A stretch of DNA of 64,000 bases. Source: Verrucomicrobiales bacterium. Lineage in GTDB: Bacteria > Verrucomicrobiota > Verrucomicrobiia > Verrucomicrobiales > V1-33. Under the pieces are notes generated by a model. It ran no database searches and had not been told where the DNA came from. It was given only the letters and a program-made list of their open reading frames with translations. Position numbers and translations under genes: made by a program. The stretch covers positions 628 to 64,627 of the forward strand of contig JAYVOP010000169.1 of NCBI GenBank assembly GCA_043757865.1, given 5' to 3'. Shown in pieces: positions 18,354 to 62,355 of this stretch (position 1 is its first letter; the number at the start of each line of letters is the position of its first letter).

Positions 18354-18549
18354 ACCATCATACAGACGCCAGTCGGCTGGAGCGGACAAATTTTTTTGGC
18401 GGGTTTACCCTCAGAGCCCGCTACGATCCCTGCCGGGATCGAGGCCATTGGGGGCAAATACCCGGAGTGTCGCTTCGCTCAACTTCGGGCTAATGGCTGT
18501 GATGCCTTTGGCCTCTCGGTGGCATGGTGACATGGTGCCAGCAACCTCG

Positions 18550-27225: not shown

Positions 27226-27357
27226 GGCTTTTAAATTGCGAATGAACGGCTTGCAAATTGCGAATGAACGGTCTGCGAATTGCGAATTACAGGCTTACAA
27301 ATTGCGAATAAACGGCTTGTAAATCGCGAATGAATGGCTTGCACATTGCGAATTTTG
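27226..27357. repeat. Six head-to-tail copies of a 22-bp direct repeat (consensus GGCTTGCAAATTGCGAATGAAC)
   Basis: The units are 27226-27247, 27248-27269, 27270-27291, 27292-27313, 27314-27335 and 27336-27357. There are no spacers between them. The core ATTGCGAAT is kept in 5 of 6 units. The array fills the divergent intergenic region between the GT4 gene start (27213) and the ATPase gene start (27373). Confidence 0.95.
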
Positions 27358-27372
27358 AGCATAAAATTTGCC

Positions 27373-42956: not shown

Positions 42957-45900
42957 TTACTGCGGCTTGATCGCCTCGCTGGCCTCGCTGGCCTCCTTGG
43001 CTTCGCGGGCGCGGCGTTTGCGTTCTTCTTCGTCGGGGTCCTCATCACGGTTGCTACCGCCGTAGCCAGTGATTTCAACAGTGACTAACGAGACGGGAAC
43101 TTCTGCTGTTGGCGCGGTAGTTTTGGGAGTGTCAGTCGTGCTCGGGCCGGGGGCGGGAGCGGGGGGCGGCGGCGGGGGCGCGGCAGCTATGCTAGGCGAA
43201 GATGGGGCGGCTACAGCGGGCGCTCCTGAGGCGGCTCCGCTAGCGGCTATATTTCCAGCATTGGCAATAACTGGCGCGGCTAAATTTAACGTGCCTGCGG
43301 AGCGGATGCCTGCATCGCCAGCGTCGATCTTTCCAGCCACAGCTATGAGATCCACGCTGCCGGGGGCCAGACCAGCCACGGTGTTCAATACACCGATGCC
43401 GCCACCAGTGGCCAAGCCTGCAAGGTCCACTTTCACATCGCCCGATTGCGGATCAATGATGACGCGCGTGGGCGGAGCACTGGCCACGGTCTTGCTAGAG
43501 GAACCAGCGGCAATATCGCCAGTGCTACTCCAGATGATTTCGTTGCCACCACGCAGCGTGAAAATCCGAGAGATGCCGAGGTCCACATTGCCATCGGTAA
43601 AGATCGAAATGTTACCACCGCTCTCTGTAATGATGCCCGGAGGTGCTAACGGCGTGCCGATGACGCTGGTGGCTAAGCTCAATTTCCCGCCAGGGGCGAA
43701 GATGGAAATGTCGCCCCCACTCTTCGTGCGGATGTCGCGGCTTTGGGTGTTAATATCGCCCACGTAAGTCCCCGTGCCAAACAGCGAGGCGATGGCCGCC
43801 AAGCCTGAGGTATAGGTTCCAGCGTTAAGACCTCCTGCTAAATTATGCTCCCGACCAGAGTCCCGCAGCAGCCGATAGAACACCTCCAGCGCGATGCGAT
43901 GCTGTTCCTCCCTCGGCAGCGCGGTGAAATTCCCACTCGTGAGACCGGGGAAACTAGCCGCTAGCTCCGTCTGATATTTTGAGAGATTAGCCGCCGTGAC
44001 ATAAGTGGTGATAAACGCCTCAAAGTTCAGCGAAGCACTCTCCAGTCCTAGCGCGCCCCCCACCCCAGCGCCCACGATCAGGCTACTACTAGCAAACGTC
44101 AGATTCGGATTCCGCGCATTGCCAATACTAGTGATACCCGTGCCCGTGCCGTCTTGCAGACTGGCTCCCGAGCCTAAATCAAGATTGCGCCCCGCCAACA
44201 CTTCCAGCGTGCCGGGACCATTGATTTGCAAATCACCTAACAACGGCTTCTCACCCGTGGCCAAGCTATTGCCCGCGCTCTGCGCAGTGATGCGCAGCGG
44301 AGCCGTAGCATCATAAGGCGTAATGTCGCGCCCAGCACTCACGAGCGACACATCACTCGCAGTGAGATTTTGCAGATAGAACGAAATGTCCCGGATGTCG
44401 TTACCCGCAATGACACGGGCGGATTTACCAGCGAACAAATTCAGCCCAGAAATATCGCCTGTGCCCGCATAGAGGTGGAGCGGCTGCGTGTCGCCTATGT
44501 GCAAGGGTCCAGGCGCATGGAGGTTCTGTTTATCCGAGAGTGCTTGATTGACCGAGCCGCTTTCAGCGAAATGTTGATTCACGAAATCCAGCAAATTGTT
44601 CGGTGTTTCGCGTGCTCGCGTGGCCACAGAAATATTGGTCAGCAGGCTTTGGAAGGCGAATGGCGTGCGCACGCCGGGGAGCGCGTCGGGGTTGGAATCG
44701 GAAAGATTGATGATGCTGGCAGACCAGACGTTGCCGTTCAGATCCGCATTGTAGCCCACGGCTTGCAGCCCATTGATCGCCCCGCTCGCCACCAAATCAA
44801 TCGTGCCCCTAGCCGCTGGAGCCAAGGTGAGACTTCCTTGCAAATTAATATTTCCCGCCATGGCGGTGGCCTTCAGCGTGCCCGGCATGATGCTGCTAGT
44901 CACGCCGAAGGGCGTCACGCTGGCCTCATCTAAGCGCAACCAAGGTTGGTAACGAGAAACGGAATTGTCCGTTAGTAAATTGATGTTTTGCAGCCACGTC
45001 TGCAAGATCGGTGTGGCCGTGGTGCTGCCCGCAGCCGCCACTGCGGTGCGCAGTGTGACATTGCCAGTTAAAGACGAAAGCGATACCGCCGTGCTAGCGT
45101 TGTAGGTATTAAAATACGTTTTATACCAATAAGTGTTACTATAACCCTGCGGCAGCCAGAACGGATTGGCCACGGGACCGAGCAGCAAATCTTTCCGTGC
45201 CCGGACATCGAAGCTGCCTTTGCCAACGAAGAGGGCCGTCGGCAACCACGTCTTGCTGTCCAGCGGAGCCGCATTGATGATGCTGCCCAGTGATGGCGTG
45301 CGTGTAGCATTGGTCTTGATTTCCCCACCTGCATTCAGCGTTCCCTGACCACGCTCCACGTAGTAAGCCCCACCATCAATGTTGGCCCCCGCATTCACCA
45401 TCACATTGCCACCACCCAGTTCCACCAGTGTGGATGCAGCGGCGGCACCCTTGGTCAGACGGGCGTTTGTGGGTGCCACGGCATCCACATTCCGCACGTC
45501 TCCGCCAGCAGTTAGGCTCACATTGCCACCACCTAACGCGCCCACGCCTTCAAAGAAATTGCTGTAGTCGATCCACCAACTAGTAGAGGCAATTTCGTTG
45601 TTTCTAGAGAGCGCGAAGTTCCCATTCGCATCCAACGCCCCACGGCGGTAGAGCCAGTTGAATGGTAATTCGCGACTGCTGTCGTCGATCAATGCGCCCG
45701 CTGTGTTCTTCGTTAGATGCCTAATGTCGCCTTGGGCAAAAATGTTCACGTTGCCGCCTGCCAGCGTATATTGCGCGGCGTATCCAGGCGATTGTTGGAC
45801 CGCGCCCAACGCACCTTGGGTGCCTGTGAGACTGAGCACGGGCACGGCAAACTGCCCGCCTAGCGTGGCGTCCGTGACCTTGGTGCCAGCGGTATAAATG

Positions 45901-48900
45901 GTGCTGAATTGGTTCAGCAACTGCACATCACGCGCAGCCGCTACGTTGATATTGCCACTGCCCGTGCGGATGACTTGATACAGTTTCCCACCCGTGCCGA
46001 TGCCAGTGGAAGTCACTGCCGTGGTCCCTGGCGAGGTGGAAAGATTCAACCCGCCATTTTTCCCTAACTGTAACAAGCCGCTCGTAGCACTCAGGCCGGA
46101 GGGCGCACGCACCTGATTCCCATTGGCCGCTGTGAAGTCCGCGCCAGCAGTTAGGGTGTAGCTGTAGCTCTGTTGATTGGCTCCCAGTAAAGGATTCTGA
46201 TCCAGCAGCAGGGAGGTGTAAGCCCCCGTCACAAAGCCATCGTTCAGTGAATTGAAGAACGTCAGATTGCCACCAGCCCGCAGCGTTAAATCACCCGGCA
46301 CGCTGAGCGGGCCGAATCGATTTCCTGCGAGATTCCAGTCCGCCGTGTTCGTAGAACTCGTAGTTCCCAAGATTAGATCGCCCGTGCGATTGATCACTTC
46401 TGCGCCCGGCTGAACCCGCAGCACGCTCTGTAGGGCTGCATTACTCAAGGTTAAACGCGCTAACATGGCATTGTAACCAGCAGAAGCCACGCCTGCATCG
46501 CCTACGAACATGATCCCATTATTCCGCACATTGTTCTGCACCGTCGTCGTGATCGTGCTGCCACTAGCATTGGTGAGGTCGAAGATTTTATACCCCTCCG
46601 CGATGATCGAAGACGCGCCCGTGATCGTGCCCTCAATCGAACTCAGTTCCAAGTCAGAGCTGCTAGCATTCTGCGGAGCACGCAAATGCAGCGTGCCAGT
46701 GAATTGTCCTTCCCCACTGGCGTCCGTCACGCCTAGCTTGATTTGTGAACCAGCACTCAGCGTCAGCAAGCCGCCAGCAGTCCCACGCGTGGCTAGGAAA
46801 ATATCGCCCCCTTTACCAGCGCTATTGAAGTGCAGACCAGAGGCATCCAGAACCGCAGTGGAACTAAGAATTAGTGACTTACTAGCATCCAGCGCGATGC
46901 TGCCACCTTGGTTACCAGCGGCATTGATCTGGCCCGTGATAGTCAGTTTCCCCGCATCCACCGCTAAGCGGAAATTCTGCGCATTACTCACTCCGCCCAG
47001 CGTGACATCACCCGTGCGGATACGGAAATTTCGCACTGCGGTAAAGCCTGTGCTATTCAGCGTGGCGTTGGTTCCATCCAAATCAGGAATGGTAGCCGCA
47101 TCTAGCGAGAACTCGCCTGCGCGGCCTCCCAGGCCGTTTTGACCCGCCATACTGCCGTCGAGCACGAACTGTCCTAACGGAGCACTGATACTCACGCCAC
47201 CAGCATTTCCCCCACCAGCAGCCGCCGCTACCCTGACCACACTGCCGCTGCCAATGGTCACATTTCCTATGTCCGCAGTCAGCTTCACTTGGCCACCATC
47301 ACTATACTTCGTGAGATCCTGGATTACGTGTCCAGTGCCTGCTAAATCAAGATTTCCAATGATATTCAAATTGCCGCTGGTGGCCCGCAACGTCAACAAT
47401 CCGCTCGGCAAAAGAATGTCGCTGCCTTGGGTAAGACTCGCACCGCTCAGCGTTAGGCTGGCACCGCGCCCACCCGTAATCGCTGCCGTGCCTCCACCAG
47501 CGGGCTTCTGCACGGTCAGCGCACCACCAGCGGACAGCACTTGGCTAGAGCCCGCCACCCCTGCGATTACAGGCGTGGTGAGGAAAAGATTGCCCTCCAC
47601 TTTCAGGCTCCCACTGCTTTCATTGATAATGCCTGCACTGGCCTGCAACTGCACGTTGGCATATTGATCGATGTTCAACGCGCCTTGCCCCACATGAATC
47701 GTACCGCCTTCCAGCACTAAGGTGCCGCTAGCTGCGGCAATGATGCCCGGGGCGCTGCGGCCAGGGCTGTTGTCCAAATAGATGTTCTGCCCCATCAACC
47801 TGGCCGTGCCGCCGCCCGTGTTGAAGCCCCGAATCTCCGCCGCGTGCAGCGCCAACTGATTCAGACTAGCAGTGCCGACTTGCCCCGTACCGTAGATGTC
47901 GATAGACGAATAACTCAAGAAATTCAGTGCAGACGCCGATTGTAAATTTGTCAATGCCGCGCCTGCTAAAACAAGGCCTGTGCTTGGTTGCAGCGCGCCC
48001 GCATGGTTCAGTATCAGACTAATTTGACCGCTATTTAAATTCACCGTTTGCCCCAGCAAACTCGCATTAGGACTCAGCGAGGTGGCCGATGTGGAGTCCA
48101 ACGTCACACTCCCTCCTGATAAGCTCACGCCAGCCCCCACGGTCATCATTGGCACCGTAGAAGCGGTTACACCCGTGCGCACCACTTGCGCGTTAGGATC
48201 GCTGCTCACGCGCACTAGCAACCCATCGCCATTGAGGGAAATTTTATCCGCCCCCCCGCTGGTGCCGCCATTCTGCGTGATCTGCGCGCTTGCCGCTAAG
48301 GTCAGTGCTTGATTGGCAACAAGCACAATGTCTGGTCCAGTCAGCGGCGTGCTGGCATTATCCAATGTTAGATGATTCGTTTTCACGATCACGCTGGTGC
48401 CGTTAGCGCCCATTTTGCGAACCCCACCGATCAACAAACTTGCCGCCCCAAAGCCATTCAACTGGCCAGCATCCAAGACCAAACTCCCCGGCACGGGTGC
48501 GCCACCGCTGGTGTTGATGAGAATGTCCACCGGGCTGGAAATGTCCACCAAGCCACCGCGTCCGCCAGAGGTCGTCGCTAGCACGCTGCCATTTACGGCC
48601 ATGGCCGTAGTGGCCGCTAGCACTAGTTGGCCGGCATCAATCGGCAAGCGCGGCACTGTGGCATCGCGCTTGGTCGCGCTTTCGGTGAACCACGCATTAG
48701 CGAAGTAGTCTTGATACTCCGAGCGTTGCCGCACCACACTAGCTGGTGCCACTTCCCAGCGACTGAAAATTTCCAGCACCTCGCGCGAGCCATTGAGACT
48801 GTTGAAACGATACCCAGACACGAGACTAGCACCATCCGACTTCAAGACCGTGCCCAGCGGAATGCCGGACTGCGGCGTGACGAGCACGGCTCCCGGCAGC

Positions 48901-51900
48901 AACGCATAGCGCGCTGGTAACAACGTGTAAGTCCCCGCCCGCAAAGCTTCGCTGGCTCCCAGATATACTTGATCGCCAGCCTTCAGGCCGCCGTTTATAT
49001 AGCCTGGATCGCCTCCCAGGTTGCCAGCATTGCTGCTGTTATTGAATGCCCCGAAAGGCGCAAAGTTAGCGTTGTAACTCGGCATGACCGCAAAGCTAGT
49101 GGTCGAGGCCAAGATGTCTTTCGAGCCACCGATGCCTTGAATCCAACGATACGCATAGAGATCGCCCCCGCCGCTGATGTCGATCACCGAGCCTTGCTGC
49201 GTGTTCACTGCTAGACCAGCAATGTTGATCGCCTTCACTGGCGGCCCCGCCGTGGTGATGTCCGTGCCCGCTGGATCAATCCACGATGTGCCATTTTGCA
49301 GAATGCCATACGGAAATGTGAGACCACCACCAGAAATGGAAGTGAGGCTGCTAGGCAAGAGATTCACTGTTTTCGTAGAGCCTACTGCCAAGCCAGAAAA
49401 CGCATCCAGCGGAGCCGTGCCCGTGCCATCCCAGCCCAAATTTATAATGCCCAGCGGAGCGCGCAGGATGCCTCCCTGATTGATCACGCTAGCATAGACA
49501 TTGAGCGTCCCACCCGCCTCAAGCGGTAGATCTCGCCCGCCCGAGGGATTGATGGTGATGGTGCCGGACTGCGTGATGCCACTGATTTTATAGTCAGCCA
49601 CATTTAAAGTAAACAACGTAGCTGCCGCAGGATAAATTTGCGCAGCCGTTAAGTTTAGATGTCCGGCCATGTTCAGCGAGCCATCGCCACGAATGTCACC
49701 ATTCCTAGCCGTAAGATTGGCCAGCCCAATGCCTTGCAGCGAGAGATTCCCCATGTCGATATGATCCGCCGTGACGTTGAGAATGCCCGTGCCGTAAGTT
49801 GGTTTTGCGTCCGCCACCTTCGGCAAGACATCCAGTGCGTTGCTGGGCAGCAAGAACGCCTGACCCAGCGCCACGTAAGGCGCGGAGAGATTCACGGGGT
49901 CCTGCGTTTTGAGAAAACCAGAGTTAGCCACCAACAAACTACCACGCGCAGCAATGTCCACATTGCCCTTAAACTCCACCGCTCCAGATCCGCCTAACGT
50001 CAACGAATCGAAGCCTCCACTCAAAAAAGTATCCGCTGCAAAATAGCCCATACCAGGAGTAGCGTTTCCTCCCCCATTCCGCACGGCAGTGCCGATGCCT
50101 GCGAATCCAGCGGGCAGCGTGAGCCCGCTTTGTTTCACTAGCAACGAAGTGTCCAGCGGGGTCGGTGTATCCAGCGGATCATAATAACGACCCGACGTGA
50201 CGATCAAACTGCCGCCCAAGGCAGTAGCACCACCAGCAAATCCTTTGATCGTGGAATCCACAAACAGCTCTTGCGCACCACGCAGAATTACCGTGCCGCC
50301 ATTGCTATCAACGCGGGTGGCGGTGTTCAGGAAACGATACAGTGGAGAGGTAAGGCCGCTGGAAGTGAGCACCAGTGGAGTCGTTTCTGAGCCAAGGTAA
50401 TTCGGATGCAAGTCCAGCACACCGTTCGTCCCGGACACGTCGATCATGGAGCCAGCTTCAGCCACGATATTTCCTGACAACGTGACCGTGCCACCGGGCA
50501 ACACGCTGCCGACCCGACGCCCATAAGCATCTGGCTGCAAGACTACCATGCCAGCGGCCGACAACGAGCTGCGAGGCCCTAGATAGACCGTCGGCAGCGC
50601 TTGAGTGGCCGTTAGGTTCGAGGGAAATTTATTGGCTCCGGTGAGCGTGATGTTTCCACCCGGAGCAATCACAGAGCCGAGTAAGGCGATGGTATCCGCC
50701 TTGAAATTCACGGTGCTCAAGGGTGGGGTCCGCACGATGGCACCTTCGCCAAACGTCAAATCTCCGCGCACTTTGATGGCCGCATTGTAGTCATCCACGA
50801 CTGGCAACGAGCCAAAATTCAGCGTGAGCGCAGGCCGCATGGATTCGGGATACAGCACATGCGTGGTGGCAAAGGTCTCGCTGTTTGAAGGATACGGGAT
50901 CGCCAACAGACTGACCACTTGGGGAATGATAATCGTTTTTGGAGCCACGATTAAGCCCGGAATAAACTTGTCAGGATCTTCCGTCGCGCTACCAATGCCG
51001 TTGAGCGTAAACGTCGTGAACCCGCCCTCGTTAAAGAACTCCGGCTGTAAGATCGTGGTCCCGCGATAAGCCGAACGTCCGCCAATCTGGAGCAACAACG
51101 CCTGCAACGTCAGCGCTCCGCCTTTGGCATTCACTCCTGCATATCCCTTCAACGTCGCGCCTAATTCCAAGGTGCCACCGATTATGCCGGGCTTCGTGAC
51201 ATCGCGCCCCGTGTTGATAATGAGGCTGCCGCCATTGCCATAAGCCCTACTGCCCGTGGCTCCTAACGCCACGCCGCCAGAGACATCCAGCACCGCTCCC
51301 CGTTGCAGATTGGCGCTGAAACTATTGATCGTAATCGTGCCGCCATTCGTCAGCAATGGCAACGCCAGCGGATCGGGCGCGCTCAAGCGATCATCCACTA
51401 GCAAACCCGCCGTGCTCACGTTCGCCCCTGGAGCAATGGTCACATTACCACGTCCGACATTCGGCGGAGGCGACGCCGTGAGGAATGGCACCGCCCCGGG
51501 CGATAAATTGTAGGCGGTCAATTTCACAGTGCCACCTGGCAAAATAATGTTGCCCTGCACGTTAATGTTGGCTCCAGCCAAAGTCAGGCTACCGCTCGCA
51601 GGCCCCGTTAAATCAATGCCACGCGGCACTAGAATGTTCCCATCAGGATTGCTCACCCCAAAATTTCCAAAGCCAAATTCGCTAAGCCAAGTGGGGGGCA
51701 GCACCGTCTGCGCCACGCGCTCTGGCCGCAGCGCCAAGGGATTGCCACTGGCATCCACCGTGAATGGACCTGCGGCTGGCAAATGAGCATCGCCAAAGGA
51801 AACGCTGGGCGGTGTGGGAGAGAAATCGATCGGTACAGTGCCATTCAATTTCTGCGCAGTGAAATTTAGCTCTAGCGTGGACGCTTTCGCTAGCACGCTG

Positions 51901-54026: not shown

Positions 54027-54028
54027 AG

Positions 54029-55560: not shown

Positions 55561-55561
55561 G

Positions 55562-57466
55562 TTAGAATTTGGTGCTGATGTCGATAAAGAAGACGTCGCT
55601 CTTGAGCGGCGGTCCGGCAATTTCTTGGGCACTCATCCATTGGAAGCCCACCTTGGTGCGCTTGGAGAGGGCCATGGAGGCTCCCAGGACAAAGCCTTTA
55701 GCATTGGTGCCACCGCCTGCAAATTCAGAATCAGTGAAGCCGTCGATGACTGCATCCGATTCCACATAGCGATAACCCACGAACGCATTCCAGTCATAGC
55801 GCTTAGCCAGCGCGGCCTTGCCCAGTTGCAGTTGCAGCATCCACGCGGTGTCACCACCTTCGTATTTTCCGATCTCTGTCGGCGTGGTGCGCGGCGTGGT
55901 GTCCGCCGTCGTGGTCGTAGTGGTTTTACCATCGGCCCCAGTGGTGGTGACATCGATCGTAGGCGGAGCGGGGTTCGGACCACGATTATTTACCGCTACT
56001 TTTTCGATGTCGCCCTGACGGAAAGCGAGGTTTTTCAGATACTCCCCTTTCAGCGATAACTGATAGGGTTCCCAATTATTGAAATCAATTTTCCCCGTGA
56101 GAGCCAGCACTTGGAAGGGCGTAGCATAGCCGAAATATTGATATTGATTGGTCGTGCCGAAGTTGTTCAACGGGCCTGGGACAATGTTTCTCAGTGCCAT
56201 GTAAGTATTCCCGCGTTGGGCAAAGGCGGGCCGTGTGGTGTCGGTGTTGCCCGCATCGGAGGCGCTAAGCGGCGTATAGGGATCAGACAATTTACCCTCG
56301 GCTCCTTTGAAATAATAGTAAGCCACGCCCACTTTGGCATCAATCTTCTTAGTCACTTGCCAATCAAAACCTACTTGGCCTGCGATGAGCCATTTGTCGG
56401 TACTATTATACTTGCTAGGTTGATTGCTACTGAAGTTTAGATCCGTGTTGTAGAAGGGCGAGAACGTGGCGTTTACAAACGGCGTGAAGCCTGGGACGAT
56501 CTCATATTTCCCCTGCAAGGCGATGCCGTCCATCCCCACGTCTTCATCAAAGAGCACGTCAGAACAGAAGAATGGATTATCAAAACGACCGAACGTGAGT
56601 GCGAGTTCCTTGCCTGGAATATCCCCCAGTTCCCATTTCATAAAGGCGCGGTCTAACCAGATGGCATACTTACTGAAATTACCACCTTGGCCACTGCCAG
56701 ATGCACCCAAACTTTGGTTAGTGGTCACTGGGCTGTTGCTTTCCCCAGTGCCAATGCGCAGCCCCCCCGTGAAGCCGTCACCAAGGTCTAACTCCGTGCC
56801 AATCCGAGCACGCAGTCTCATGCGAGAACGATTTGCATCAGTATTATATTGAGGGGAAAAATTCGTGCCGCTGGTATCAAATGGCGAGCCCGTGTTAATC
56901 GCGTTGAAGTTAGGAAAAGCACCCGTGTTATCATTTCCCTGCGGATAATTATCGACTTCAAAACGTAGCCGAATATCGCCAAAGGGCTTCCAACGGGAAA
57001 TCCATTCCGGCGTCTGGCCAGCGCCTGTCCACTTCTCCGTCTTAGCAGTGGCCATGACTTCGTCTTTGATTTCATCGCGAATTTTAGCACGTACGGTTTC
57101 GGGAATGTAGGGCACGCGCATGTCGTTATCACCCAACGGATCAGCCGTGGAGGCGGCACGAGCGTCTGCGGCGTCTTGCTCAGCTTGAGCGATCAGCGCT
57201 TGGCTTTCACCTTGAGTCAGAGCGCCTTTTTTCTCCAAAATGCGCAGCAGATTCACCATTGCATTTTGAGAGGGGGGATTGGCCGCAGCTTGCGGAGTTA
57301 CTAAATCACCCGCAGGCGGCAGCGCAGGAGCCTCCGGTGCTTCATTAGGTAAGGATGGCTCTGCAGGTGCAGCTTCTGGAGTTTGCGCAAACAGATTGGA
57401 TACACAAAGCGTAGAGGCTAGGAACAATGGCCAGGGACGGCCAACAAGACGGTAACGTTTTTTCAT
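55562..57466 (-). CDS. Outer-membrane beta-barrel protein (putative porin-like family)
   Basis: The protein has a signal peptide and a Pro/Ala-rich linker. Alternating beta-strand patterns run throughout. The C-terminus reads ...DVFFIDISTKF, and the terminal aromatic residue is an OMP beta-signal. The protein is 634 aa. Confidence 0.6.
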   Translation of the reverse strand: MKKRYRLVGRPWPLFLASTLCVSNLFAQTPEAAPAEPSLPNEAPEAPALPPAGDLVTPQAAANPPSQNAMVNLLRILEKKGALTQGESQALIAQAEQDAADARAASTADPLGDNDMRVPYIPETVRAKIRDEIKDEVMATAKTEKWTGAGQTPEWISRWKPFGDIRLRFEVDNYPQGNDNTGAFPNFNAINTGSPFDTSGTNFSPQYNTDANRSRMRLRARIGTELDLGDGFTGGLRIGTGESNSPVTTNQSLGASGSGQGGNFSKYAIWLDRAFMKWELGDIPGKELALTFGRFDNPFFCSDVLFDEDVGMDGIALQGKYEIVPGFTPFVNATFSPFYNTDLNFSSNQPSKYNSTDKWLIAGQVGFDWQVTKKIDAKVGVAYYYFKGAEGKLSDPYTPLSASDAGNTDTTRPAFAQRGNTYMALRNIVPGPLNNFGTTNQYQYFGYATPFQVLALTGKIDFNNWEPYQLSLKGEYLKNLAFRQGDIEKVAVNNRGPNPAPPTIDVTTTGADGKTTTTTTADTTPRTTPTEIGKYEGGDTAWMLQLQLGKAALAKRYDWNAFVGYRYVESDAVIDGFTDSEFAGGGTNAKGFVLGASMALSKRTKVGFQWMSAQEIAGPPLKSDVFFIDISTKF

Positions 57467-57493
57467 AGATGGGTTGAGAAAGGAAGCGAACGG

Positions 57494-58174
57494 CTAGTTC
57501 GGTCGCGCGATGTTGATGCGCATGTTGATCGGCATCGGCATGCCGTTAGGGGGAGGCTCGGGGAGCTGGAGGCCCTGTAACACATTGGCATCCAGCGACT
57601 GGGCAGTGTTTTGATCGCCACTGACATTGCGCAGCACAGCCTTGGTCACGCGGCCCGTGGAGTCCGTCCAGAGGCTGGCTTCGCAACGGAGCGCGGCGGT
57701 TTTGGTGAAGGAATTTCTCGTGATGGCACTAACAAGCGCCTTTTGTGTGGATAGCACAAAGCCATCATATTTGCCTTTCTTATGACCCCCGCCAATGCTC
57801 GCCACGCGACGGGGCCCACCGGGCAAGACGCCCCCTGGAGCGACTGGCGCATCATTAGAAGGCGCAGCATCGGCGGGGGAGTCAGGAGGGGTATCGGGTT
57901 CATCCACTACTTTCTCTTGCACTACTTCTTTGACCTCCACGGGCGGCGGTGGTGGTGGCGGCGGCAGCGGGGGAGGTGGCGGCGGGAGGGTGATGCTGAC
58001 AACGTGTTCCACTTTAGAGACGCGCATTTTCTCTACGGGTGGACGGGTGGCTAAATAAGCGGCAACACCTCCGAATGCACCTAACATCGCCAAGAAGGCG
58101 AGTGGATTGCGCTTGTAGAGGGGGCGTTCGTCGAACTCATCGAACTCGTCTTCAGGTAGGTTTTGCTTTGCCAT
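57494..58174 (-). CDS. TonB-like energy-transducer protein
   Basis: An N-terminal TM anchor (FLAMLGAFGGVAAYLA) is followed by the proline-rich rod PPPPPPLPPPPPPPPVEVKEV and a ~90-aa C-terminal domain. I prefer the ATG at 58174 because the track start at 58204 is TTG. Confidence 0.7.
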   Translation of the reverse strand: MAKQNLPEDEFDEFDERPLYKRNPLAFLAMLGAFGGVAAYLATRPPVEKMRVSKVEHVVSITLPPPPPPLPPPPPPPPVEVKEVVQEKVVDEPDTPPDSPADAAPSNDAPVAPGGVLPGGPRRVASIGGGHKKGKYDGFVLSTQKALVSAITRNSFTKTAALRCEASLWTDSTGRVTKAVLRNVSGDQNTAQSLDANVLQGLQLPEPPPNGMPMPINMRINIARPN

Positions 58175-58187
58175 AAAATGAGATGGT

Positions 58188-58583
58188 TTACTTTTCGCTA
58201 GCAAGATTAATTTGAGTGATGCCCATTTTGTTGAGCGTGTCTAACACGGGCCAGAGCATGTTGTATTGCGCTAGTCCATCGCCTCGGATAATGACTGGGG
58301 AGTCAGGAAATTTCCCCCGCCAGACAGAGATGCGCCCTTCCAGATCGCCCAAGGGGGTAGGGCTGGTGGATTTATCTACCATGACGCCACCTTGGGCGTT
58401 GATGGTGATCGAGAGCGGCTTTTTCTCCGTCAACGTGGCTGCACTGCTGCTTTTGGGTAGGTTCACTTTCAAGCCTTGTACGCTGGCGGTGGTCATGATG
58501 ATGAAGATCAGCAGGAGCACTAAATAAAGGTCCACCATCGGCGTGACGTTGATGTCGTCGTAGGATTTATCGTCGGCATTCAT
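58188..58583 (-). CDS. exbD: ExbD/TolR family protein
   Basis: The motif DINVTPMVDLYLVLLLIFIIMTT is followed by a periplasmic domain containing VIIRGDGLAQYNMLWPVLDTLNKMGI. The protein is 131 aa. Confidence 0.85.
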   Translation of the reverse strand: MNADDKSYDDINVTPMVDLYLVLLLIFIIMTTASVQGLKVNLPKSSSAATLTEKKPLSITINAQGGVMVDKSTSPTPLGDLEGRISVWRGKFPDSPVIIRGDGLAQYNMLWPVLDTLNKMGITQINLASEK

Positions 58584-58589
58584 GGCTAA

Positions 58590-60428
58590 TTATTCGTTGG
58601 CGGTGGGATAGGCCTCAGCAATCCGGGCGACGAATTCATCAATAAAGATTTCCATGCCATTGATGGTGTCTTTAATACGCGCATTTAAATAGCTGTATAA
58701 AAACAACGCCGGAATAGCGACCGCCAGCCCCGCCACTGTGGCCAGCAGCGCACCTGCGATACCCGGAGCGATTGAATTGATCTCCACCTGCCCGCTTTGA
58801 GCGATCACAGCAAAGGTCATCATCACCCCAATGACCGTGCCCAGCAGCCCTAGGTAAGGACCACCTGCAATGCCAATGGTGAGGAACACTAACTTGCTCT
58901 GCAAACGCTGCACTTCCCGTACGTGGCCACCATCCAGCGTGGCGCGGATGGCTTCGATCGAGCGCCCGGAGAGCCCGGAAAATTTCTCTTTATCCGCATC
59001 GATTCGCTTCTGGATTTCTTGTGATCCAATATGATAAATGTGAAACAACGGAGACTGCCGCATGAGCCGCTGTTCTCCGCCGGAGGCTGCTCCCAGCCCC
59101 GCCTTGCCGTCTTCGTTGGCGTGATCCAACGCGGTCAGATCACCAGAAATGTCTTTCCAGCGACGGAGGAATGCTTTGGTAGCAGCGGAAATTTTATTCA
59201 AATAGAGGAATTTCTGCACACCCACCATCCAGCCCACGATGGCCAACAAAACGCAGCCGATGATCACAATTTTGCCATCGAAAGTGAGGTCTTTACCAAT
59301 GTTGCGGAACATCTTCACCTGCGAAATAAACTCGCTTTCCTTTTCCGCTTCTTCAGCCGCTTCCACCACGCTTTGCGTAATCATCTTGGCGGCCTCTGGG
59401 CCAGTACCTTGGCTGATCGCAGCGAGCTTGATACTGCCTGGTTCGCGCGCTATTTTGGAGATTTCTAACTCATCAATTTCTCCGCTAAATGAAGTATCGC
59501 CCGGAGTGTCGGTTTTCCCCAAAATGCTGGGGCCACTCAGTGCCGGAAGGCCCACGGAAATGGTGCCCGCTGCCGTGCCATTGAGATAGAGAGTGATGCT
59601 AGGCCCATTGGCGATGACCGCCAGATGCGCCCACGCATTGACGATCAATGACGTGGTGCCCGTGGCGACTTGTTTATTGCCACCTGTGGTAATCTCTACA
59701 TAAGGCAGCCCCTTATTTTCACCCACCACAAATCCGTTATCGCCCTCCTGACGACTAAAGATCATGGCCTTTTCCCGCAGCGCACTGGGCTTGACCCACA
59801 GCGACCAAGTGAGCCCGCCATTGGCATTCCATTGCATGGCTGGATTGTCCATTTTAATGGGCTTGGGAGCAGGTAAGCGCAAGCCGTTGCCAATGATAGC
59901 CCCGTAAGCCACCGCACCTGAGGCATCCGGGAGAATGGAGTTAGGACCGGAGTCCAAGGCGGCGGCATTGTTTTCCGCGAAGTGATACACTAAGATCGTA
60001 TCCGCATCATAAGTAGCCTTAGGTTCAAATGATTTCGTGGCCTTACTATTGCCATAGTAGAGCCAAATTTTGGTAGCTGCTTCTGGCTGTAAGCTGGGAA
60101 GTTTCACCCACACCGCCGCCTCTCCGATGGAGGCATCCCACTGCTCAATGTGATACGAAAGCAGTGTCTTATCATCATCCGCCAAGAAACGTAAATCGGA
60201 CGCATCATCCAACGTGCCGGAAGGGAAATTCGCATCTTTTAAACGGATCAACACGGCCGTAGTGCCAATGGGATTACCGATGGCAAAACCTTTCTCAGAA
60301 GTATCAATGGTGATCTTCTTACGCGACGTCCAATCCTTATTCCACCAGTCTCCTGCGTGCGAGAATGCGACGGTGCCCAGCAAGATACTGGATGTGTAAA
60401 TAAGAGAGCGAAGGGAGGAACAAAGCAT
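58590..60428 (-). CDS. MotA/TolQ/ExbB proton-channel protein with a large N-terminal periplasmic DUF2341-like and LamG/ConA-like extension
   Basis: The protein is 612 aa. The N-terminus has a signal or TM segment followed by GDWWNKDWTSRKKITIDTS (a DUF2341-type start). Next comes LTWSLWVKPS...AWAHLAVIANGPSITLYLNGTAAG (LamG-like). The C-terminal 230 aa form the ExbB core (GGPYLGLLGTVIGVMMTF...GIAGALLATVAGLAVAIPALFLY). Confidence 0.8.
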   Translation of the reverse strand: MLCSSLRSLIYTSSILLGTVAFSHAGDWWNKDWTSRKKITIDTSEKGFAIGNPIGTTAVLIRLKDANFPSGTLDDASDLRFLADDDKTLLSYHIEQWDASIGEAAVWVKLPSLQPEAATKIWLYYGNSKATKSFEPKATYDADTILVYHFAENNAAALDSGPNSILPDASGAVAYGAIIGNGLRLPAPKPIKMDNPAMQWNANGGLTWSLWVKPSALREKAMIFSRQEGDNGFVVGENKGLPYVEITTGGNKQVATGTTSLIVNAWAHLAVIANGPSITLYLNGTAAGTISVGLPALSGPSILGKTDTPGDTSFSGEIDELEISKIAREPGSIKLAAISQGTGPEAAKMITQSVVEAAEEAEKESEFISQVKMFRNIGKDLTFDGKIVIIGCVLLAIVGWMVGVQKFLYLNKISAATKAFLRRWKDISGDLTALDHANEDGKAGLGAASGGEQRLMRQSPLFHIYHIGSQEIQKRIDADKEKFSGLSGRSIEAIRATLDGGHVREVQRLQSKLVFLTIGIAGGPYLGLLGTVIGVMMTFAVIAQSGQVEINSIAPGIAGALLATVAGLAVAIPALFLYSYLNARIKDTINGMEIFIDEFVARIAEAYPTANE

Positions 60429-60490
60429 GAGAAGATAAGAAAATGGAGTGGAGAAATGCTGTGGTATCTATGTCATCAGACGGGTGACAC

Positions 60491-60522
60491 TCACAAGTTG
60501 TGCTGTGTGACGTTGTTGTTTC
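60491..60522 (-). promoter_or_regulatory. Conserved ~32-bp element upstream of exbB (copy A), containing the inverted half-sites GTCACA-N10-TGTGAC
   Basis: The + strand reads tcacaagttgtgctgtgtgacgttgttgtttc. It matches copy B (62324-62355) at 29 of 32 positions. The proximal edge is 63 nt upstream of the exbB ATG at 60428. Confidence 0.7.
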
Positions 60523-60564
60523 AGTGGCGTGTTGGCTGCGTGGCTAAGCTGTGGCGGGAGTTGG

Positions 60565-62265
60565 CTAAAAATCAGTAGATACTTTAAACGACAACAACAC
60601 CTCGCCCACCTTGGCGTTCGTTTGATTGATCAACGGCCAGCCTGCATCCAGTGAGCCGTGGAAATGATTCTTTAATTTCACCCGCGTGCCGACTCCGACG
60701 CTCATGAGTTTGAAGGTATCCTTTTGGTCGGGAAGTGGATCCACGATGGAGAGTCTCGCACCGTCCCAGAAGCCGTAGATGCGCCATTCATTGGCGGGAT
60801 CGCGGGTGGCTTCGCTTTCCTTTTCTGGCTGAGGGTTCATGCGCCCTAATAAGGATGGAGTGCGGAGTTCTAACGTGACGGCTAGGCCGTTATCACCTAG
60901 CTGGGTGGACTCTAGGTAGCCCCGCACGGTGCCCATGCCCCCAGCGGAAAATTGCTCGCTGTTAATGAGAGAATTGGCGGTGCCTTGCGTGGAAATTTTA
61001 CCGAACACCTGCGCGCCTAACGGCAAGTCTTGGGTATGCGAGGCATCAGCCCTAATGTGGAAGAAAGCCGCGCTGGCTTGGTAGCGTTTGTTGTCGTATT
61101 CCAATTCATCGCTGCCGCCTAGGCCACGCAGGCTGAAGGTGGCGGTGGAATTAAATTCCGTAAATGAATGTTTCCCTGACCAGTTCGCGCCATAGCTAGC
61201 ACTGATGGGGAAATAGGTGATCGGCGTGGCGATTTCACTTGTCCCAACGAGCACGTTCTCTTTGAAATGCTTGTAGTCCACACCGAGGCTAGCGGTCTGG
61301 TAGAACTCCGCTTCCGTTGGTAAATTAATCAGCGCCCGCACGCCAAAAATCTCGCCCCGACCAGTCACAGCGGCTCCTCCCAATGTGGAAACATTGCTGT
61401 CCTGCTTGGTGGCATTTAGCATCAAGCTGACGTTGTCCAACGAATCGAATTTTGCCAAATAGTAGGCGGCATAAACGGAGGCATCCTTGGGGCTTTCAGG
61501 CGCTACTTGATAGCTGATGCCGGCCGCGTGGCCTTTTTGCCAAAGATTCGAATAGTTCAAAGCTGCATTCACCCGCAACGGAGCGGTGTCCGCAGTGTAG
61601 CGGTTATTCAATTCAAGGCTGCCATGCAGCGGAGATTTATCTTTCACTTCCAGATCAATATCCACCGTGCCAGGCTCTACGCCTGGATTCACGGACGGCT
61701 TCACTTGCAGGTCTGGCGCGGAATTCAACGCGATGATCTCCTTGGTGACTTCATTGAAATCTACCACCTTTCCCTCGGCTAGGGAGGGCACGCGCTGCTT
61801 GATTTGATCCAACGTGAAGTATCGCGAATTCCGCACCCGCAGTCGGCCCACAGTATTCTCCGTCACCAGCATTTTGATAACCCCGCGTCTGGGCACTTGT
61901 GGCGGCACTTCCACGACGACGGTTTTATATCCTTTGTCTTGAAACGCCTTTTCCAAAGCCGCTCGCGCGCCCTCTACGTCCTTGGTCGTGCGGCTCGGGC
62001 CGAGAAACGGATACACTGCTTTTTCCACCTCCGGCAGCGTCAAATGTTGCACTCCCGTGACACGATATTCGCGCACGTACAGACTATCCTCGGGACCGTC
62101 CGAGGGAGCCTCTGGCGCGGGCTCATTATCAGGAAATGCCGCATCGGAACGCGGTGACATCGTCGAGGCCGTTTCCGCTAGAGCATTTCCTAACCCCAGC
62201 AGCACGCCGCAGACCACGGCTAGAGGGGCGCGCGCGGCGGGCGGGGTAGTGGAAAATGATCGCAT
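60565..62265 (-). CDS. TpsB outer-membrane transporter (ShlB/FhaC/HecB family, POTRA domains plus beta-barrel)
   Basis: The POTRA region reads YVREYRVTGVQHLTLPEVEKAVYPFLGP...DVEGARAALEKAFQDKGYKTVVVEVPPQ. It is followed by a 16-strand-like barrel with C-terminus ...LLSFKVSTDF. I favour the ATG at 62265 (MRSFSTTPPAARAPLAVVCGVLLGLGNALA) over 62301. That choice places the conserved upstream element at the same distance as in exbB. Confidence 0.85.
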   Translation of the reverse strand: MRSFSTTPPAARAPLAVVCGVLLGLGNALAETASTMSPRSDAAFPDNEPAPEAPSDGPEDSLYVREYRVTGVQHLTLPEVEKAVYPFLGPSRTTKDVEGARAALEKAFQDKGYKTVVVEVPPQVPRRGVIKMLVTENTVGRLRVRNSRYFTLDQIKQRVPSLAEGKVVDFNEVTKEIIALNSAPDLQVKPSVNPGVEPGTVDIDLEVKDKSPLHGSLELNNRYTADTAPLRVNAALNYSNLWQKGHAAGISYQVAPESPKDASVYAAYYLAKFDSLDNVSLMLNATKQDSNVSTLGGAAVTGRGEIFGVRALINLPTEAEFYQTASLGVDYKHFKENVLVGTSEIATPITYFPISASYGANWSGKHSFTEFNSTATFSLRGLGGSDELEYDNKRYQASAAFFHIRADASHTQDLPLGAQVFGKISTQGTANSLINSEQFSAGGMGTVRGYLESTQLGDNGLAVTLELRTPSLLGRMNPQPEKESEATRDPANEWRIYGFWDGARLSIVDPLPDQKDTFKLMSVGVGTRVKLKNHFHGSLDAGWPLINQTNAKVGEVLLSFKVSTDF

Positions 62266-62323
62266 GGTGGTATGATTGAAGCTGGGGGAATTAGGGCTCA
62301 CTTATTTCAATCGCACGGGCTGG

Positions 62324-62355
62324 TCACAAGTTACGCTGTGTGACATTGTTGTTTC
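62324..62355 (-). promoter_or_regulatory. Conserved ~32-bp element upstream of tpsB (copy B)
   Basis: The + strand reads tcacaagttacgctgtgtgacattgttgtttc. The proximal edge is 59 nt upstream of the ATG at 62265. On the minus strand both copies read GAAACAACAAYGTCACACAGCRYAACTTGTGA. Confidence 0.7.

Follow-up and report, generated by a model that had tools for sequence, protein, structure and literature searches.

A type Vb secretion operon with its own proton-motive-force motor in Verrucomicrobiota, a counterpart of the Pseudomonas pdt locus

The window analysed here, a stretch of 64,000 nt from a Verrucomicrobiales bacterium, carries an operon in which a type Vb secretion pair (TpsB and TpsA) is combined with its own proton-motive-force motor, a TonB/TolA-like protein, a Porin_5 barrel, a coiled-coil protein and a parvulin (PPIase). 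This composition is well supported, as is the view that the locus corresponds, in Verrucomicrobiota, to the pdt locus of Pseudomonas.

Composition of the operon

Window ORFs and their translations confirmed eight minus-strand genes. An earlier note, made from the sequence of the window, had given these genes with their domains and spacing, and ORF and domain searches reproduced all of them. A further ORF, beyond the coordinates covered by that note, precedes tpsB. The features are as follows, with E values for domain matches in brackets.

62413-63618, minus strand: predicted PstS-like ORF, 401 aa, possible accessory first gene
60565-62265, minus strand: tpsB (ShlB 1.7e-13, POTRA_2 1e-11)
58590-60428, minus strand: exbB fusion (DUF2341 1.2e-18, Laminin_G_3 1.7e-20, MotA_ExbB 3.1e-27)
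58188-58583, minus strand: exbD (ExbD 1.4e-25)
57494-58174, minus strand: tonB-like gene, with poly-Pro spacer (TonB_2 weak)
55562-57466, minus strand: Porin_5 barrel, 634 aa (Porin_5 3.1e-183)
57092-57124, minus strand: candidate TonB-box-like strand of the porin, 'DMRVPYIPETV', translation verified
54889-55560, minus strand: coiled-coil protein with signal peptide
54029-54892, minus strand: parvulin PPIase (Rotamase 1.5e-17; also Rotamase_3 and Rotamase_2)
42957-54026, minus strand: tpsA, 3689 aa (TPS 2.7e-16, adhes_NPXG 1.8e-18, DUF3739 3.7e-26)
43056-43091, minus strand: TpsA C-terminal tail motif SLVTVEITGYGG, translation verified

From tpsB to tpsA the coordinates give intergenic distances of 136, 6, 13, 27 and 1 nt, a 4-nt ATGA overlap and 2 nt; the longest ORF of tpsB extends to 62301 (alternative GTG start). 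TpsB is an Omp85-type outer-membrane transporter of two-partner secretion (TPS), and the loop-6 'VRGY' motif is present in its translation. TpsA is a beta-helical exoprotein that is secreted and belongs to the PdtA-like DUF3739 subfamily; the TPS domain spans aa 121-248 (nt 53283-53666), and DUF3739 covers aa 3493-3603 (nt 43218-43550). It has a single Cys, no VENN motif was found in it, and it is 40-50% identical lengthwise to the TpsA proteins of related loci.

The exbB fusion product is, by its domains, an ExbB/TolQ-like proton-channel subunit, and the exbD product is an ExbD/TolR-like motor subunit. A 370-aa N-terminal periplasmic extension of the fusion comprises a signal-anchor, DUF2341 and a LamG/ConA-like domain, and the orthologs from Methylosinus and P. 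fluorescens share the three-domain architecture. The transmembrane Asp of ExbD ('TPMVDL') is near-invariant in 69 orthologs, so the motor looks functional. The TonB/TolA-like protein has an acidic cytoplasmic N-terminus, one transmembrane helix, a poly-proline spacer and a conserved C-terminal domain (CTD) of ∼90 aa (nt 57497-57820), the consensus of which is kept in 65 loci. The window's own copy misses the Pfam cut-off for TonB_2, with E 0.0095 over the full protein and E 0.0011 when only the CTD is searched. Orthologous CTDs match the same family in 32 out of 33 cases (best E 6.7e-11), and the proteobacterial orthologs carry the PGAP label 'energy transducer TonB'.

The coiled-coil protein, with a signal peptide and no lipobox Cys, is periplasmic. 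It has no match to any Pfam family and is 27% identical (E 3e-22) to the positionally equivalent Methylosinus gene product. The parvulin combines a signal peptide with a SurA/PrsA-like N-terminal part. The 401-aa PstS-like protein, also secreted by virtue of a signal peptide, has no match on its own in Pfam or NCBIfam; a profile of 16 orthologs matches the phosphate-binding structures 4ecf (E 9e-7) and 4exl (E 2e-6), which points to a divergent periplasmic phosphate-binding-protein-like protein.

Conservation and relation to the pdt locus

In 80 Verrucomicrobiota loci the order is, almost without exception, TpsB, DUF2341-LamG-ExbB, ExbD, TonB-like, Porin_5, coiled-coil, (PPIase), TpsA. The neighbours, counted at loci with a long enough contig, keep their order and strand: we found the coiled-coil gene in 74/75 loci, ExbD in 63/64, the C-terminal and N-terminal parts of ExbB in 58/59 and 56/57, respectively, TpsB in 50/52, the TpsA N-terminus in 57/61 and the TonB-like gene in 59/71, the last count being held down by the sensitivity of tblastn. 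The PPIase, found in just 19 of 65 loci, is thus an optional member, and it was found in the proteobacterial loci examined. Since neighbours, order and strand are kept in related loci, the block is more than a chance adjacency.

The same order is seen in Alpha-, Beta- and Gammaproteobacteria, frequently on plasmids. It is matched in a Methylosinus plasmid, a Klebsiella plasmid and P. fluorescens R124, all components being orthologous, and all 12 plasmid records bearing the porin also carry a DUF3739-type TpsA, 4-28 kb away. The Ton genes are tightly linked to this TpsA/TpsB subfamily in the neighbourhood survey, and no TonB-dependent receptor that the TonB-like protein might serve was found within the window. 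The view that the genes form one functional unit is upheld by this synteny, which covers about 80 Verrucomicrobiota species and the three proteobacterial classes, together with the published co-transcription of the Pseudomonas counterpart.

That counterpart is pdtA/pdtB-exbB2-exbD2-tonB4-PA0696-PA0699 of P. aeruginosa (PA0690-PA0699), in which PA0697 corresponds to the coiled-coil protein and PA0699 to the parvulin. The earlier note had named the pdt-exbB2-exbD2 linkage; it is documented (PMC2729926, PMC4971064, PMC7035377) and the region is homologous. In P. aeruginosa phdA-pdtB-exbB2D2-tonB4-PA0696-PA0701 is a single transcription unit dependent on PhoB and sigma-VreI (PMC4971064), and PdtA, PA0696 and PA0698 rank among the proteins most induced under phosphate limitation (PMC9769906). 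The association is not new: Llamas et al. 2009 reported that of TPS, ExbBD and PA0696 as conserved in several Proteobacteria, and the names exbB2, exbD2 and tonB4 were already in place. The kind of cassette is therefore known, while its mechanism in the pdt locus is still unexplained; the Ton and porin genes there are still termed uncharacterised, as the note had supposed.

Its guess at a PVC-group genome was right, because the closest relatives of the porin are all from Verrucomicrobiota. Its description of the system as ancient did not hold up as well. Identities across phyla (to Methylosinus: porin 41%, TpsB 44% with E 7e-145, ExbB fusion 47% over the full length) are about the same as those within the phylum. 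Together with the plasmid location, this makes spread by horizontal transfer no less likely than vertical inheritance from an ancient ancestor.

Candidate handles for the motor

The note had suggested looking for a TonB-box-like strand at the N-termini of TpsB and the barrel. The sequence ahead of the POTRA domain of TpsB is without conservation in 56 orthologs and holds no conserved strand of this kind; better candidates, by conservation, are the N-terminus of Porin_5 and the C-terminal tail of TpsA.

The tail motif of TpsA has the consensus S-[IL]-I-[TS]-V-E-V-[LI]-G-Y-G-G; a strict pattern is matched by 112 of 120 homologous C-termini, and the motif is identical or near-identical in the TpsA of Methylosinus, Cupriavidus and the Klebsiella plasmid. 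Upstream lies a variable low-complexity linker and downstream a short acidic/basic helix. In the AlphaFold model (pLDDT 77) the motif falls inside a disordered stretch (315-372) and is not packed on the beta-helix. We regard it as a candidate TonB-box-like strand and motor handle, near-invariant across phyla. The PDZ domain found near the C-terminus of some TpsA variants speaks for this handle, PDZ domains in bacteria being typically periplasmic. The motif could instead be a recognition site for the POTRA domains, the chaperone or a protease.

In the porin, the 'DMRVPYIPETV' strand lies in a periplasmic N-terminal extension and is followed by a conserved helix. V118, Y120, P122 and V125 are invariant across 25 Verrucomicrobiota porins, and the segment GDVRVPYIPETVRDQIRDEVK is kept in Alpha-, Beta- and Gammaproteobacteria. 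The RVxYIPE segment is missing in two divergent Porin_5 paralogs without Ton or TPS neighbours. This strand is a second candidate handle.

The TonB-like CTD has a relative in the regulator VreA. The VreA-like CTD aligns with it at an hhalign probability of 98% (E 2e-13), against only E 0.25 for a canonical TonB_C from the same plasmid, and is its specific paralog, implying that this CTD subtype has a ligand of its own. No VreAIR was found near the Verrucomicrobiota loci.

Proposed mechanism and alternatives

Coupling of the motor to the filament is the likeliest reading of these sequences, and we advance tentatively, at somewhat less than even confidence, a model in which the TonB-like domain would pass the force of the motor, once export is over, to the outer-membrane complex or to the tail of TpsA. 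TpsB would export TpsA with its N-terminus leading and the beta-helix would fold extracellularly, as in other TPS systems, while in the periplasm the parvulin would preserve the competence of the very long unfolded chain. The last ∼75 residues of TpsA (flexible linker, invariant S-I-I-T-V-E-V-L-G-Y-G-G strand and charged helix) would stay periplasmic, or re-enter through Porin_5, and either this tail or the RVxYIPE strand of the porin extension would serve as the TonB-like box. Proton flow via ExbB/ExbD would be converted to a pull on the outer-membrane complex, so that the motor would govern what happens to the filament once it is across (its retention, tensioning or release) and not polypeptide export through TpsB. 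In Proteobacteria the operon is part of the phosphate-starvation response, and the periplasmic sensor VreA reuses a domain of the same CTD subtype, which would signal to the sigma factor VreI what state the machine is in.

Several observations count against this model. In the transmembrane helix of the TonB-like protein the His expected from the canonical SHLS motif is not conserved, no tpsA was found within 10 kb of the module in P. fluorescens, and the AlphaFold model of Porin_5 is of modest confidence (mean pLDDT 63). When reconstituted, TPS systems carry out secretion with no external energy supply (review PMC5422565). P. aeruginosa transposon mutants in PA0695 (the tonB homologue) and PA0696 were unchanged in zebrafish virulence, and the literature covered does not describe PdtA secretion for these mutants.

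A role in uptake, which we consider unlikely but the foremost alternative, would agree just as well with the Pho regulation and the neighbouring PstS-like gene. Here, on the precedent of HxuA, a TpsA partnered by the TonB-dependent HxuC, the filament, perhaps with the secreted PstS-like protein, would capture a scarce phosphorus-containing substrate extracellularly; the TonB-like protein would open Porin_5 by pulling its RVxYIPE latch, so that the Ton module would energise import and not the filament. PhoB control and strong induction of pdt under phosphate limitation fit such a role, as do the neighbours: in P. aeruginosa an Hxc-type T2SS by which alkaline phosphatases are secreted, in Cupriavidus a T2SS together with a nuclease and a PBP_like_2 protein, and the PstS-like gene, which lies 5' of tpsB and co-oriented with it in the window and 15 of 49 related loci. 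The exbB-exbD-tonB-porin genes are invariably contiguous. The modelled barrel resembles 16-18-strand porins (OmpM1, AlgE, OprB, OmpF, DcaP), among them the substrate-specific channels AlgE and OprB. It is, however, unlike the 22-strand TonB-dependent transporters, a Pfam search found no Plug domain in it, and we know of no TonB-gated porin-type barrel. Uptake also leaves unexplained the place of tpsB directly 5' of exbB and the invariant tail motif of the TpsA subfamily, the PstS-like gene is limited to roughly one locus in three, and no substrate is indicated.

That same place of tpsB, seen in the loci examined from both phyla, would suit the strongest form of the note's idea, a Ton-like motor powering TpsA translocation or its initiation through TpsB, with Porin_5, coiled-coil protein and PPIase as assembly helpers. 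The length of TpsA (3689-4128 aa across the window and a proteobacterial locus) and the acknowledged open question of TPS energetics also favour it. We judge it improbable: TpsB offers no conserved periplasmic strand for the TonB-like domain to grasp, a TonB-type pull points inward, the wrong way to push a chain out, and FhaB and CdiA, which are just as long, leave the cell without the help of a motor of this kind.

Least probable is a Tol-Pal-like bridge of TolQ/TolR-like motor, TolA-like protein, stalked porin and coiled-coil protein that does not act on TpsA and stabilises the outer membrane round the secretion site, or only monitors the state of the envelope (in Proteobacteria by way of VreA): the motor subunits match TolQ and TolR best (TolQ heads the NCBIfam and PDB matches of the ExbB fusion), the porin fold is like OmpM1 and DcaP, which bear periplasmic stalks, and the VreA CTD is paralogous, but scores fall well short of the equivalog cut-offs for TolQ and TolR, the block was found to hold no homologues of TolB, Pal or CpoB, VreAIR is not near the Verrucomicrobiota loci, and such a bridge gives no reason why the genes strictly co-occur with a single TpsA subfamily and its tail motif.

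What is newly described, beyond the known cassette, is the TonB-box-like tail strand of TpsA conserved across phyla, the conserved periplasmic N-terminal porin extension with a second candidate strand, the CTD subtype shared by the regulator VreA and the TonB-like protein of the locus, and the divergent PstS-like gene often found upstream of tpsB.

Gene content and conservation of the locus

The locus consists of eight co-directional minus-strand genes, which the ORF list placed at the positions proposed in an earlier note based on the sequence alone. Profile searches matched every gene and domain assignment of that note, and its intergenic distances were reproduced from the coordinates (136, 6, 13, 27 and 1 nt, a 4-nt overlap and 2 nt).

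Genes of the block in their order on the minus strand, with candidate strand peptides
tpsB, (-): ShlB (PF03865, E 1.7e-13) and POTRA_2 (PF08479, E 1e-11); loop-6 VRGY in the translation
exbB fusion, (-): 612-aa protein of the ExbB/TolQ family; MotA_ExbB (3.1e-27), with DUF2341 and LamG/ConA-like domains within the first 370 residues
exbD, (-): ExbD (1.4e-25); transmembrane (TM) Asp present
tonB-like gene, (-): TM helix, poly-proline run and a weak TonB_2 match
Porin_5 barrel, (-): 634 aa; Porin_5 (E 3e-183)
coiled-coil protein, (-): 223 aa; signal peptide
parvulin PPIase, (-): between the coiled-coil gene and tpsA
tpsA, (-): 3689 aa; TPS domain (PF05860, E 2.7e-16, aa 121-248), TIGR01901 (E 1.8e-18) and DUF3739 near the C-terminus
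Candidate strand peptides: PSIITVEVLGYGG and GDVRVPYIPETV

A scan for promoters and terminators inside the block, by a method not validated for Verrucomicrobiota, gave counts that did not differ from those of shuffled controls.

Relatives of the porin number in the thousands, the closest being all from Verrucomicrobiota. A scan with the porin alignment, limited to one genome per species, detected more than 538 loci; the best 80 of these were then searched with the window's proteins. Among these best 80, the flanking genes of the porin keep their order and strand wherever the contig is long enough: the coiled-coil protein was found in 74/75 loci, ExbD in 63/64, TpsB in 50/52, the TpsA N-terminus in 57/61, and the C-terminal and N-terminal parts of ExbB in 58/59 and 56/57, respectively. 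The TonB-like gene was found less often (59/71) because only its C-terminal domain (CTD) is well conserved, and the PPIase, present in 19 of 65, is therefore an optional member. Seven further genes are kept between tpsB and tpsA in Verrucomicrobiota loci. This conserved block gives good support to the view, put forward in the earlier note, that the genes form one functional unit.

The single clear exception to synteny is locus L048, with three tandem Porin_5 paralogs and no Ton or TPS genes. Two divergent copies keep the first helix of the N-terminal extension without its RVxYIPE segment, while the third, 55% identical to the window's porin, retains RVxYIPE. The tandem genes (L048 5542-11524) adjoin Pup-ligase and proteasomal-ATPase genes. 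Four further loci (L011, L072, L042 and L067) come from bins named 'Enterobacteriaceae' or 'Akkermansia (muciniphila)' and hold a Verrucomicrobiales/Chthoniobacterales-like locus, with a porin 50-53% identical; these bin labels look unreliable. Two copies of the cassette occur in one Haloferula MAG (L051 and L078).

Directly downstream of tpsA lies a large, mostly minus-strand polysaccharide-biosynthesis cluster (window 9025-42530), encoding a Wzy_C ligase-like protein, several GT4/GT1 glycosyltransferases, a carbamoyltransferase, an asparagine synthase, three Acyl_transf_3 proteins, a Polysacc_synt_3 flippase, a UDP-GlcNAc 2-epimerase, an FkbM methyltransferase, a DUF218 protein and a Bac_transf priming transferase. 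Glycosyltransferases also flank the locus in Methylosinus. The cluster is split by an AAA_14/DUF4143 ATPase gene on the opposite strand (27334-28587 (+)). The first 200 residues of a 704-aa ORF (16275-18389 (-)) contain sigma-70 regions 2 and 4 of ECF type; the remaining ~500 aa have no family match, and the ORF may be two merged genes.

The Pseudomonas pdt locus and spread among Proteobacteria

The corresponding arrangement in Pseudomonas aeruginosa is PA0690-PA0701 (PAO1 gene list from PMC7035377), in which pdtA (PA0690), phdA, pdtB (PA0692), exbB2, exbD2, tonB4 (PA0695), PA0696 (a putative porin), PA0697, PA0698 (YbjN) and PA0699 (PpiC PPIase) are under the control of PhoB and of PUMA3 VreA/VreI/VreR. 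Llamas et al. (2009) identified tpsA, tpsB, exbB2, exbD2 and PA0696-PA0699 as sigma-VreI targets, reported that TPS, exbBD and PA0696 homologues co-travel with PUMA3 in several Proteobacteria, and found zebrafish virulence unchanged by transposon mutants in tpsA, tpsB, PA0695 and PA0696 (PMC2729926). The phdA promoter drives phdA, pdtB, exbB2D2, tonB4 and PA0696-PA0701 (PMC4971064), and some of the strongest inductions under phosphate limitation are those of PdtA, PA0696 and PA0698 (PMC9769906). The linkage is not new, having been in the Pseudomonas literature since 2009. No role has been assigned to the accessory genes since that year, and no mechanistic study was found in the literature to mid-2026 on PA0693-PA0699, tonB4, DUF2341, DUF3739 or Porin_5. 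Ton genes are absent from the 'additions to the core' of a 2017 TPS review (PMC5422565), and DUF2341 figures as an unexplained appendage in a 2025 survey of MotAB relatives.

TpsB, ExbB, ExbD, the TonB-like protein, the porin, a small secreted protein and the PPIase are shared, in this order, between the pdt locus and the window, together with a giant DUF3739-type TpsA; orthology rests on the P. fluorescens R124, Klebsiella-plasmid and Methylosinus versions, PAO1 being compared via its published gene list. The order from tpsB to the PPIase, with a DUF3739 TpsA, is the same in the Methylosinus plasmid pMSC49a, R124, the Klebsiella plasmid and the window, and a DUF2341/LamG extension was recognised on ExbB from P. 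fluorescens, from Methylosinus and from the window. By contrast with pdt, the Verrucomicrobiota version includes tpsA as the 3'-terminal gene of the operon, lacks YbjN, phdA, the LysR gene and a nearby VreAIR-type regulator, has an optional PPIase, and often carries a divergent PstS-like gene upstream. No homolog of YbjN (PA0698) was detected in the window or in the best 80 Verrucomicrobiota loci, nor of the VreAIR-type STN, sigma and FecR proteins in the window, which extends just 1.7 kb upstream of tpsB, or in the same loci (±10 kb). A VreA query against the window and the Verrucomicrobiota loci matched the CTD of the TonB-like protein only. The locus is securely identified as a TPS cassette of Pdt type that has its own Ton/Tol-like motor.

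In Methylosinus sp. C49, an STN-domain protein, a sigma factor and a FecR-domain protein precede the pMSC49a block, whose genes are annotated as ShlB-family, a 605-aa MotA/TolQ/ExbB protein, ExbD, TonB and a putative porin, followed by a hypothetical protein, a PPIase, YbjN and a 4128-aa filamentous haemagglutinin. Window and Methylosinus proteins are 41% identical for the porin, 44% for TpsB (E 7e-145), 47% over the full length of the ExbB fusion, with three domains common to both (E 1e-171), and 27% for the coiled-coil protein (E 3e-22). The Klebsiella plasmid and P. fluorescens R124 encode TpsB, DUF2341-LamG-ExbB, ExbD, TonB_2, Porin_5, a ~210-aa protein, YbjN, a rotamase and LysR. A translated search of the plasmid collection detected the porin in 12 proteobacterial records, all 12 of which also carry a DUF3739-type TpsA, 4-28 kb off; in five further records a DUF3739-type TpsA occurs by itself, preceded by an STN/sigma/FecR set of its own. 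Chance adjacency is ruled out by the synteny counts together with this 12/12 co-occurrence.

Identities between phyla are about as high as those within Verrucomicrobiota and the cassette is often plasmid-borne, which suggests that horizontal spread is at least as likely as ancient inheritance; the antiquity suggested in the earlier note is not demonstrated. G+C is 0.525-0.54 at window 54000-62000 (the accessory genes and tpsB), 0.56-0.57 over tpsA and 0.58-0.60 over much of the rest, a mild dip compatible with acquisition by transfer.

Motor components and candidate contact sites

The TM Asp of ExbD ('TPMVDL') is near-invariant in 69 orthologs, for which reason the ExbB/ExbD motor looks functional. 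The best NCBIfam matches of the motor are TolQ (120 bits, equivalog cut-off 221) and TolR (89 bits, cut-off 127). The CTD of the TonB-like protein (~90 residues, window 57497-57820 (-)) is strongly conserved; TonB_2 was detected in 32/33 orthologous CTDs (best E 6.7e-11), the window protein alone reaching 19.5 bits against a Pfam cut-off of 22. No conserved His was found in its TM segment among 57 orthologs, a His or Arg often standing just ahead. PDB sequence searches with the single porin, TonB-like and coiled-coil proteins gave no significant match, and the CTD profile retrieved HasB only (E 0.81).

In common with known Ton systems (FhuA, BtuB and FepA; HasB-HasR), the locus has a 5:2-type MotA/ExbB-ExbD motor with a TM Asp, a TonB-like protein with a TM helix, Pro-rich spacer and TonB_2 CTD, and short conserved candidate beta-strands beside disordered linkers. 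It differs in that the partner barrel is of porin type, without a plug, rather than a 22-strand transporter, in the large periplasmic DUF2341-LamG extension of ExbB, in the apparent lack of a conserved TM His, and in the location of one candidate box at the C-terminus of the secreted TpsA. The AlphaFold model of the porin, of modest confidence (pLDDT 63), comprises a barrel and three N-terminal helices; the barrel matches 16-18-strand porins (OmpM1, AlgE, OprB, OmpF and DcaP). The porin has no plug domain and is therefore not a TonB-dependent transporter. No TonB_dep_Rec or Plug domain was found in the window ORFs scanned, and a TonB-like protein serving a nearby TonB-dependent receptor was ruled out, no such receptor occurring in the window or the conserved block. 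The N-terminal extension of the porin is conserved across phyla, its helix 'NLIRLLVKQGVLT..' being joined to 'GDVRVPYIPETVRDQIRDEVK' by a variable linker rich in Ala.

TpsB shares with the canonical TPS systems (FhaB/FhaC, ShlA/ShlB and CdiA/CdiB) the Omp85-type fold, the POTRA domain and loop-6 VRGY, as TpsA shares the N-terminal TPS domain with its NxNG motif and the beta-helical passenger. Unlike canonical TpsB, it has no conserved plug-helix sequence: no conserved sequence corresponding to the FhaC H1 plug helix was evident in its N-terminus among 56 orthologs. Rich in Pro and Glu, the mature N-terminus (window 60565-62301 (-), first ~60 codons) shows no conservation in these orthologs. 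A TonB box on TpsB was ruled out, the pre-POTRA region being unconserved.

After DUF3739, TpsA continues with a variable A/S/T/P-rich linker, the near-invariant motif S-[IL]-I-[TS]-V-E-V-[LI]-G-Y-G-G and a short acidic/basic tail. The strict pattern was found in 112/120 homologous C-termini, with four near variants and two visibly frameshifted sequences. 'PSIITVEVLGYGG' is identical in the TpsA of Methylosinus sp. C49, and close variants occur in M. trichosporium, Cupriavidus and the Klebsiella plasmid, including TpsA genes remote from any Ton module. Modelled with AlphaFold (last 399 residues, pLDDT 77), TpsA forms a beta-helix in the DUF3739 region, and residues 315-372, motif included, are disordered, with no packing against the helix. 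A conserved motif in such a stretch is predicted to be a short linear strand in a flexible tail, one that we take to resemble TonB boxes such as DTITVTA. A fold search with the C-terminal model returned generic beta-helices only, none significant.

Four metagenomic TpsA fragments (P0189, P0226, P0227 and P0232) keep the tail motif and have a PDZ domain 135-200 residues upstream of DUF3739, assigned by Pfam scan in three and by precomputed annotation in P0227; its presence hints that the region near DUF3739 may be periplasmic. In three of the four proteobacterial tails examined, a second element, roughly [VF]-Q-[IFV]-[VL]-G-[VA]-G...L-[ST]-x-E-[EQ]-R, follows the shared strand (L083 20760-21119, L084 20709-21068 and L082 2133-3272). 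The tails of Verrucomicrobiota and of Methylosinus sp. C49 lack this element. The gene downstream of tpsA, in the position of the immunity gene of a CDI locus, encodes a sugar transferase; a CDI toxin was ruled out, TpsA having no VENN motif and a C-terminus that is conserved rather than polymorphic.

The CTD of VreA, the regulator of the pdt locus, was modelled as TolA/TonB-like by Llamas et al. To this we add that its subtype is the one found in the TonB-like protein of the operon. The CTD of the Methylosinus VreA-like protein (L081, 7662-8393) matched the TonB-like CTD profile with 98% probability (E 2e-13, hhalign), against E 0.25 for the canonical TonB_C encoded beside it. A common subtype suggests that VreA and the TonB-like protein may bind the same dedicated ligand.

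A link to phosphate also appears upstream of tpsB, where a 401-aa secreted protein is encoded directly adjacent (window 62413-63618 (-)). Alone it has no family match; a profile of 16 orthologs matches the phosphate-binding structures 4ecf (E 9e-7) and 4exl (E 2e-6). In 15/49 loci a homolog precedes tpsB on the same strand, and this PstS-like gene may be the first of the operon. In Cupriavidus, as in P. aeruginosa, genes for a PBP_like_2 protein, T2SS, a nuclease and phd adjoin TpsA. BLASTP found no similarity between the 401-aa protein and the proteobacterial PBP_like_2 neighbour, so that the PstS link is made via the profile only.

Possible roles of the motor

Group A colicins enter by threading a disordered domain through OmpF to reach TolB/TolA, and the giant adhesin LapA is retained in its outer-membrane channel, kept or released by a periplasmic handle in response to phosphate. 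FhaB and CdiA keep their C-terminal part periplasmic for a time, FhaB having a proline-rich region and a conserved extreme C-terminus. Colicins and LapA have no sequence relationship to the cassette; the likeness would lie in the shared logic of a disordered segment with a short epitope that crosses a porin-type barrel and is held or pulled by a Tol/Ton protein linked to the PMF, or of a giant adhesin governed by a periplasmic handle. Canonical TPS systems have no dedicated inner-membrane energy module, second barrel or coiled-coil partner (PMC5422565), and the window's TpsA has no toxin or VENN module.

We tentatively favour a role after translocation, in which the motor would handle the filament and the TonB-like domain would bind the porin strand or the TpsA tail. 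This is preferred because tpsB is always joined to the motor genes, because the TpsA subfamily and the module co-occur, and because cross-phylum conservation is seen in both candidate strands, with no such strand in TpsB. A more specific proposal, PMF-coupled type V secretion, is speculative and rather doubtful as it stands: the TpsA tail would either stay in the periplasm or return there through Porin_5, the TonB-like protein would grip its strand, and ExbB/ExbD would pull, so that the surface filament might be tensioned, retracted or released on demand. In Proteobacteria, the paralogous domain of VreA would read the same strand and thereby regulate the operon.

Ton-energised uptake through Porin_5 of something that the filament captures would suit the phosphate context equally well, and we regard it as possible if unlikely. 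In the HxuA/HxuB/HxuC system of Haemophilus influenzae, TpsA and TpsB are likewise encoded with a TonB-related outer-membrane uptake component (PMC5422565); HxuC, by contrast, is a classical TonB-dependent transporter on the housekeeping TonB, while the window has a Porin_5 barrel and the operon's own motor. Direct energising of TpsA export through TpsB is improbable, because TpsB has no conserved handle and a TonB pull has the wrong direction. A Tol-like tether or pure sensor is very improbable: the motor is TolQ/TolR-like, as in Tol-Pal, but scores far below the equivalog cut-offs, and no TolB or Pal gene was found in the block or its orthologous loci.

Type V secretion is conventionally presented as a self-sufficient process that needs no energy source. 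The present TPS subfamily keeps a dedicated PMF-driven motor along with a second barrel and a coiled-coil partner, with TpsA sometimes encoded apart from the module, and the cassette is spread over most Verrucomicrobiota lineages sampled and many Proteobacteria, P. aeruginosa included. Three conserved elements are defined here, namely the TpsA tail strand, the porin N-terminal strand and the shared TonB4/VreA domain subtype; with these strands and the VreA/TonB-like paralogy, the role of the motor becomes experimentally tractable in Pseudomonas. An action of the motor on the filament would make the system the first energised surface machine derived from type V secretion, and an action on the porin would make Porin_5 the first porin-type channel gated by TonB.
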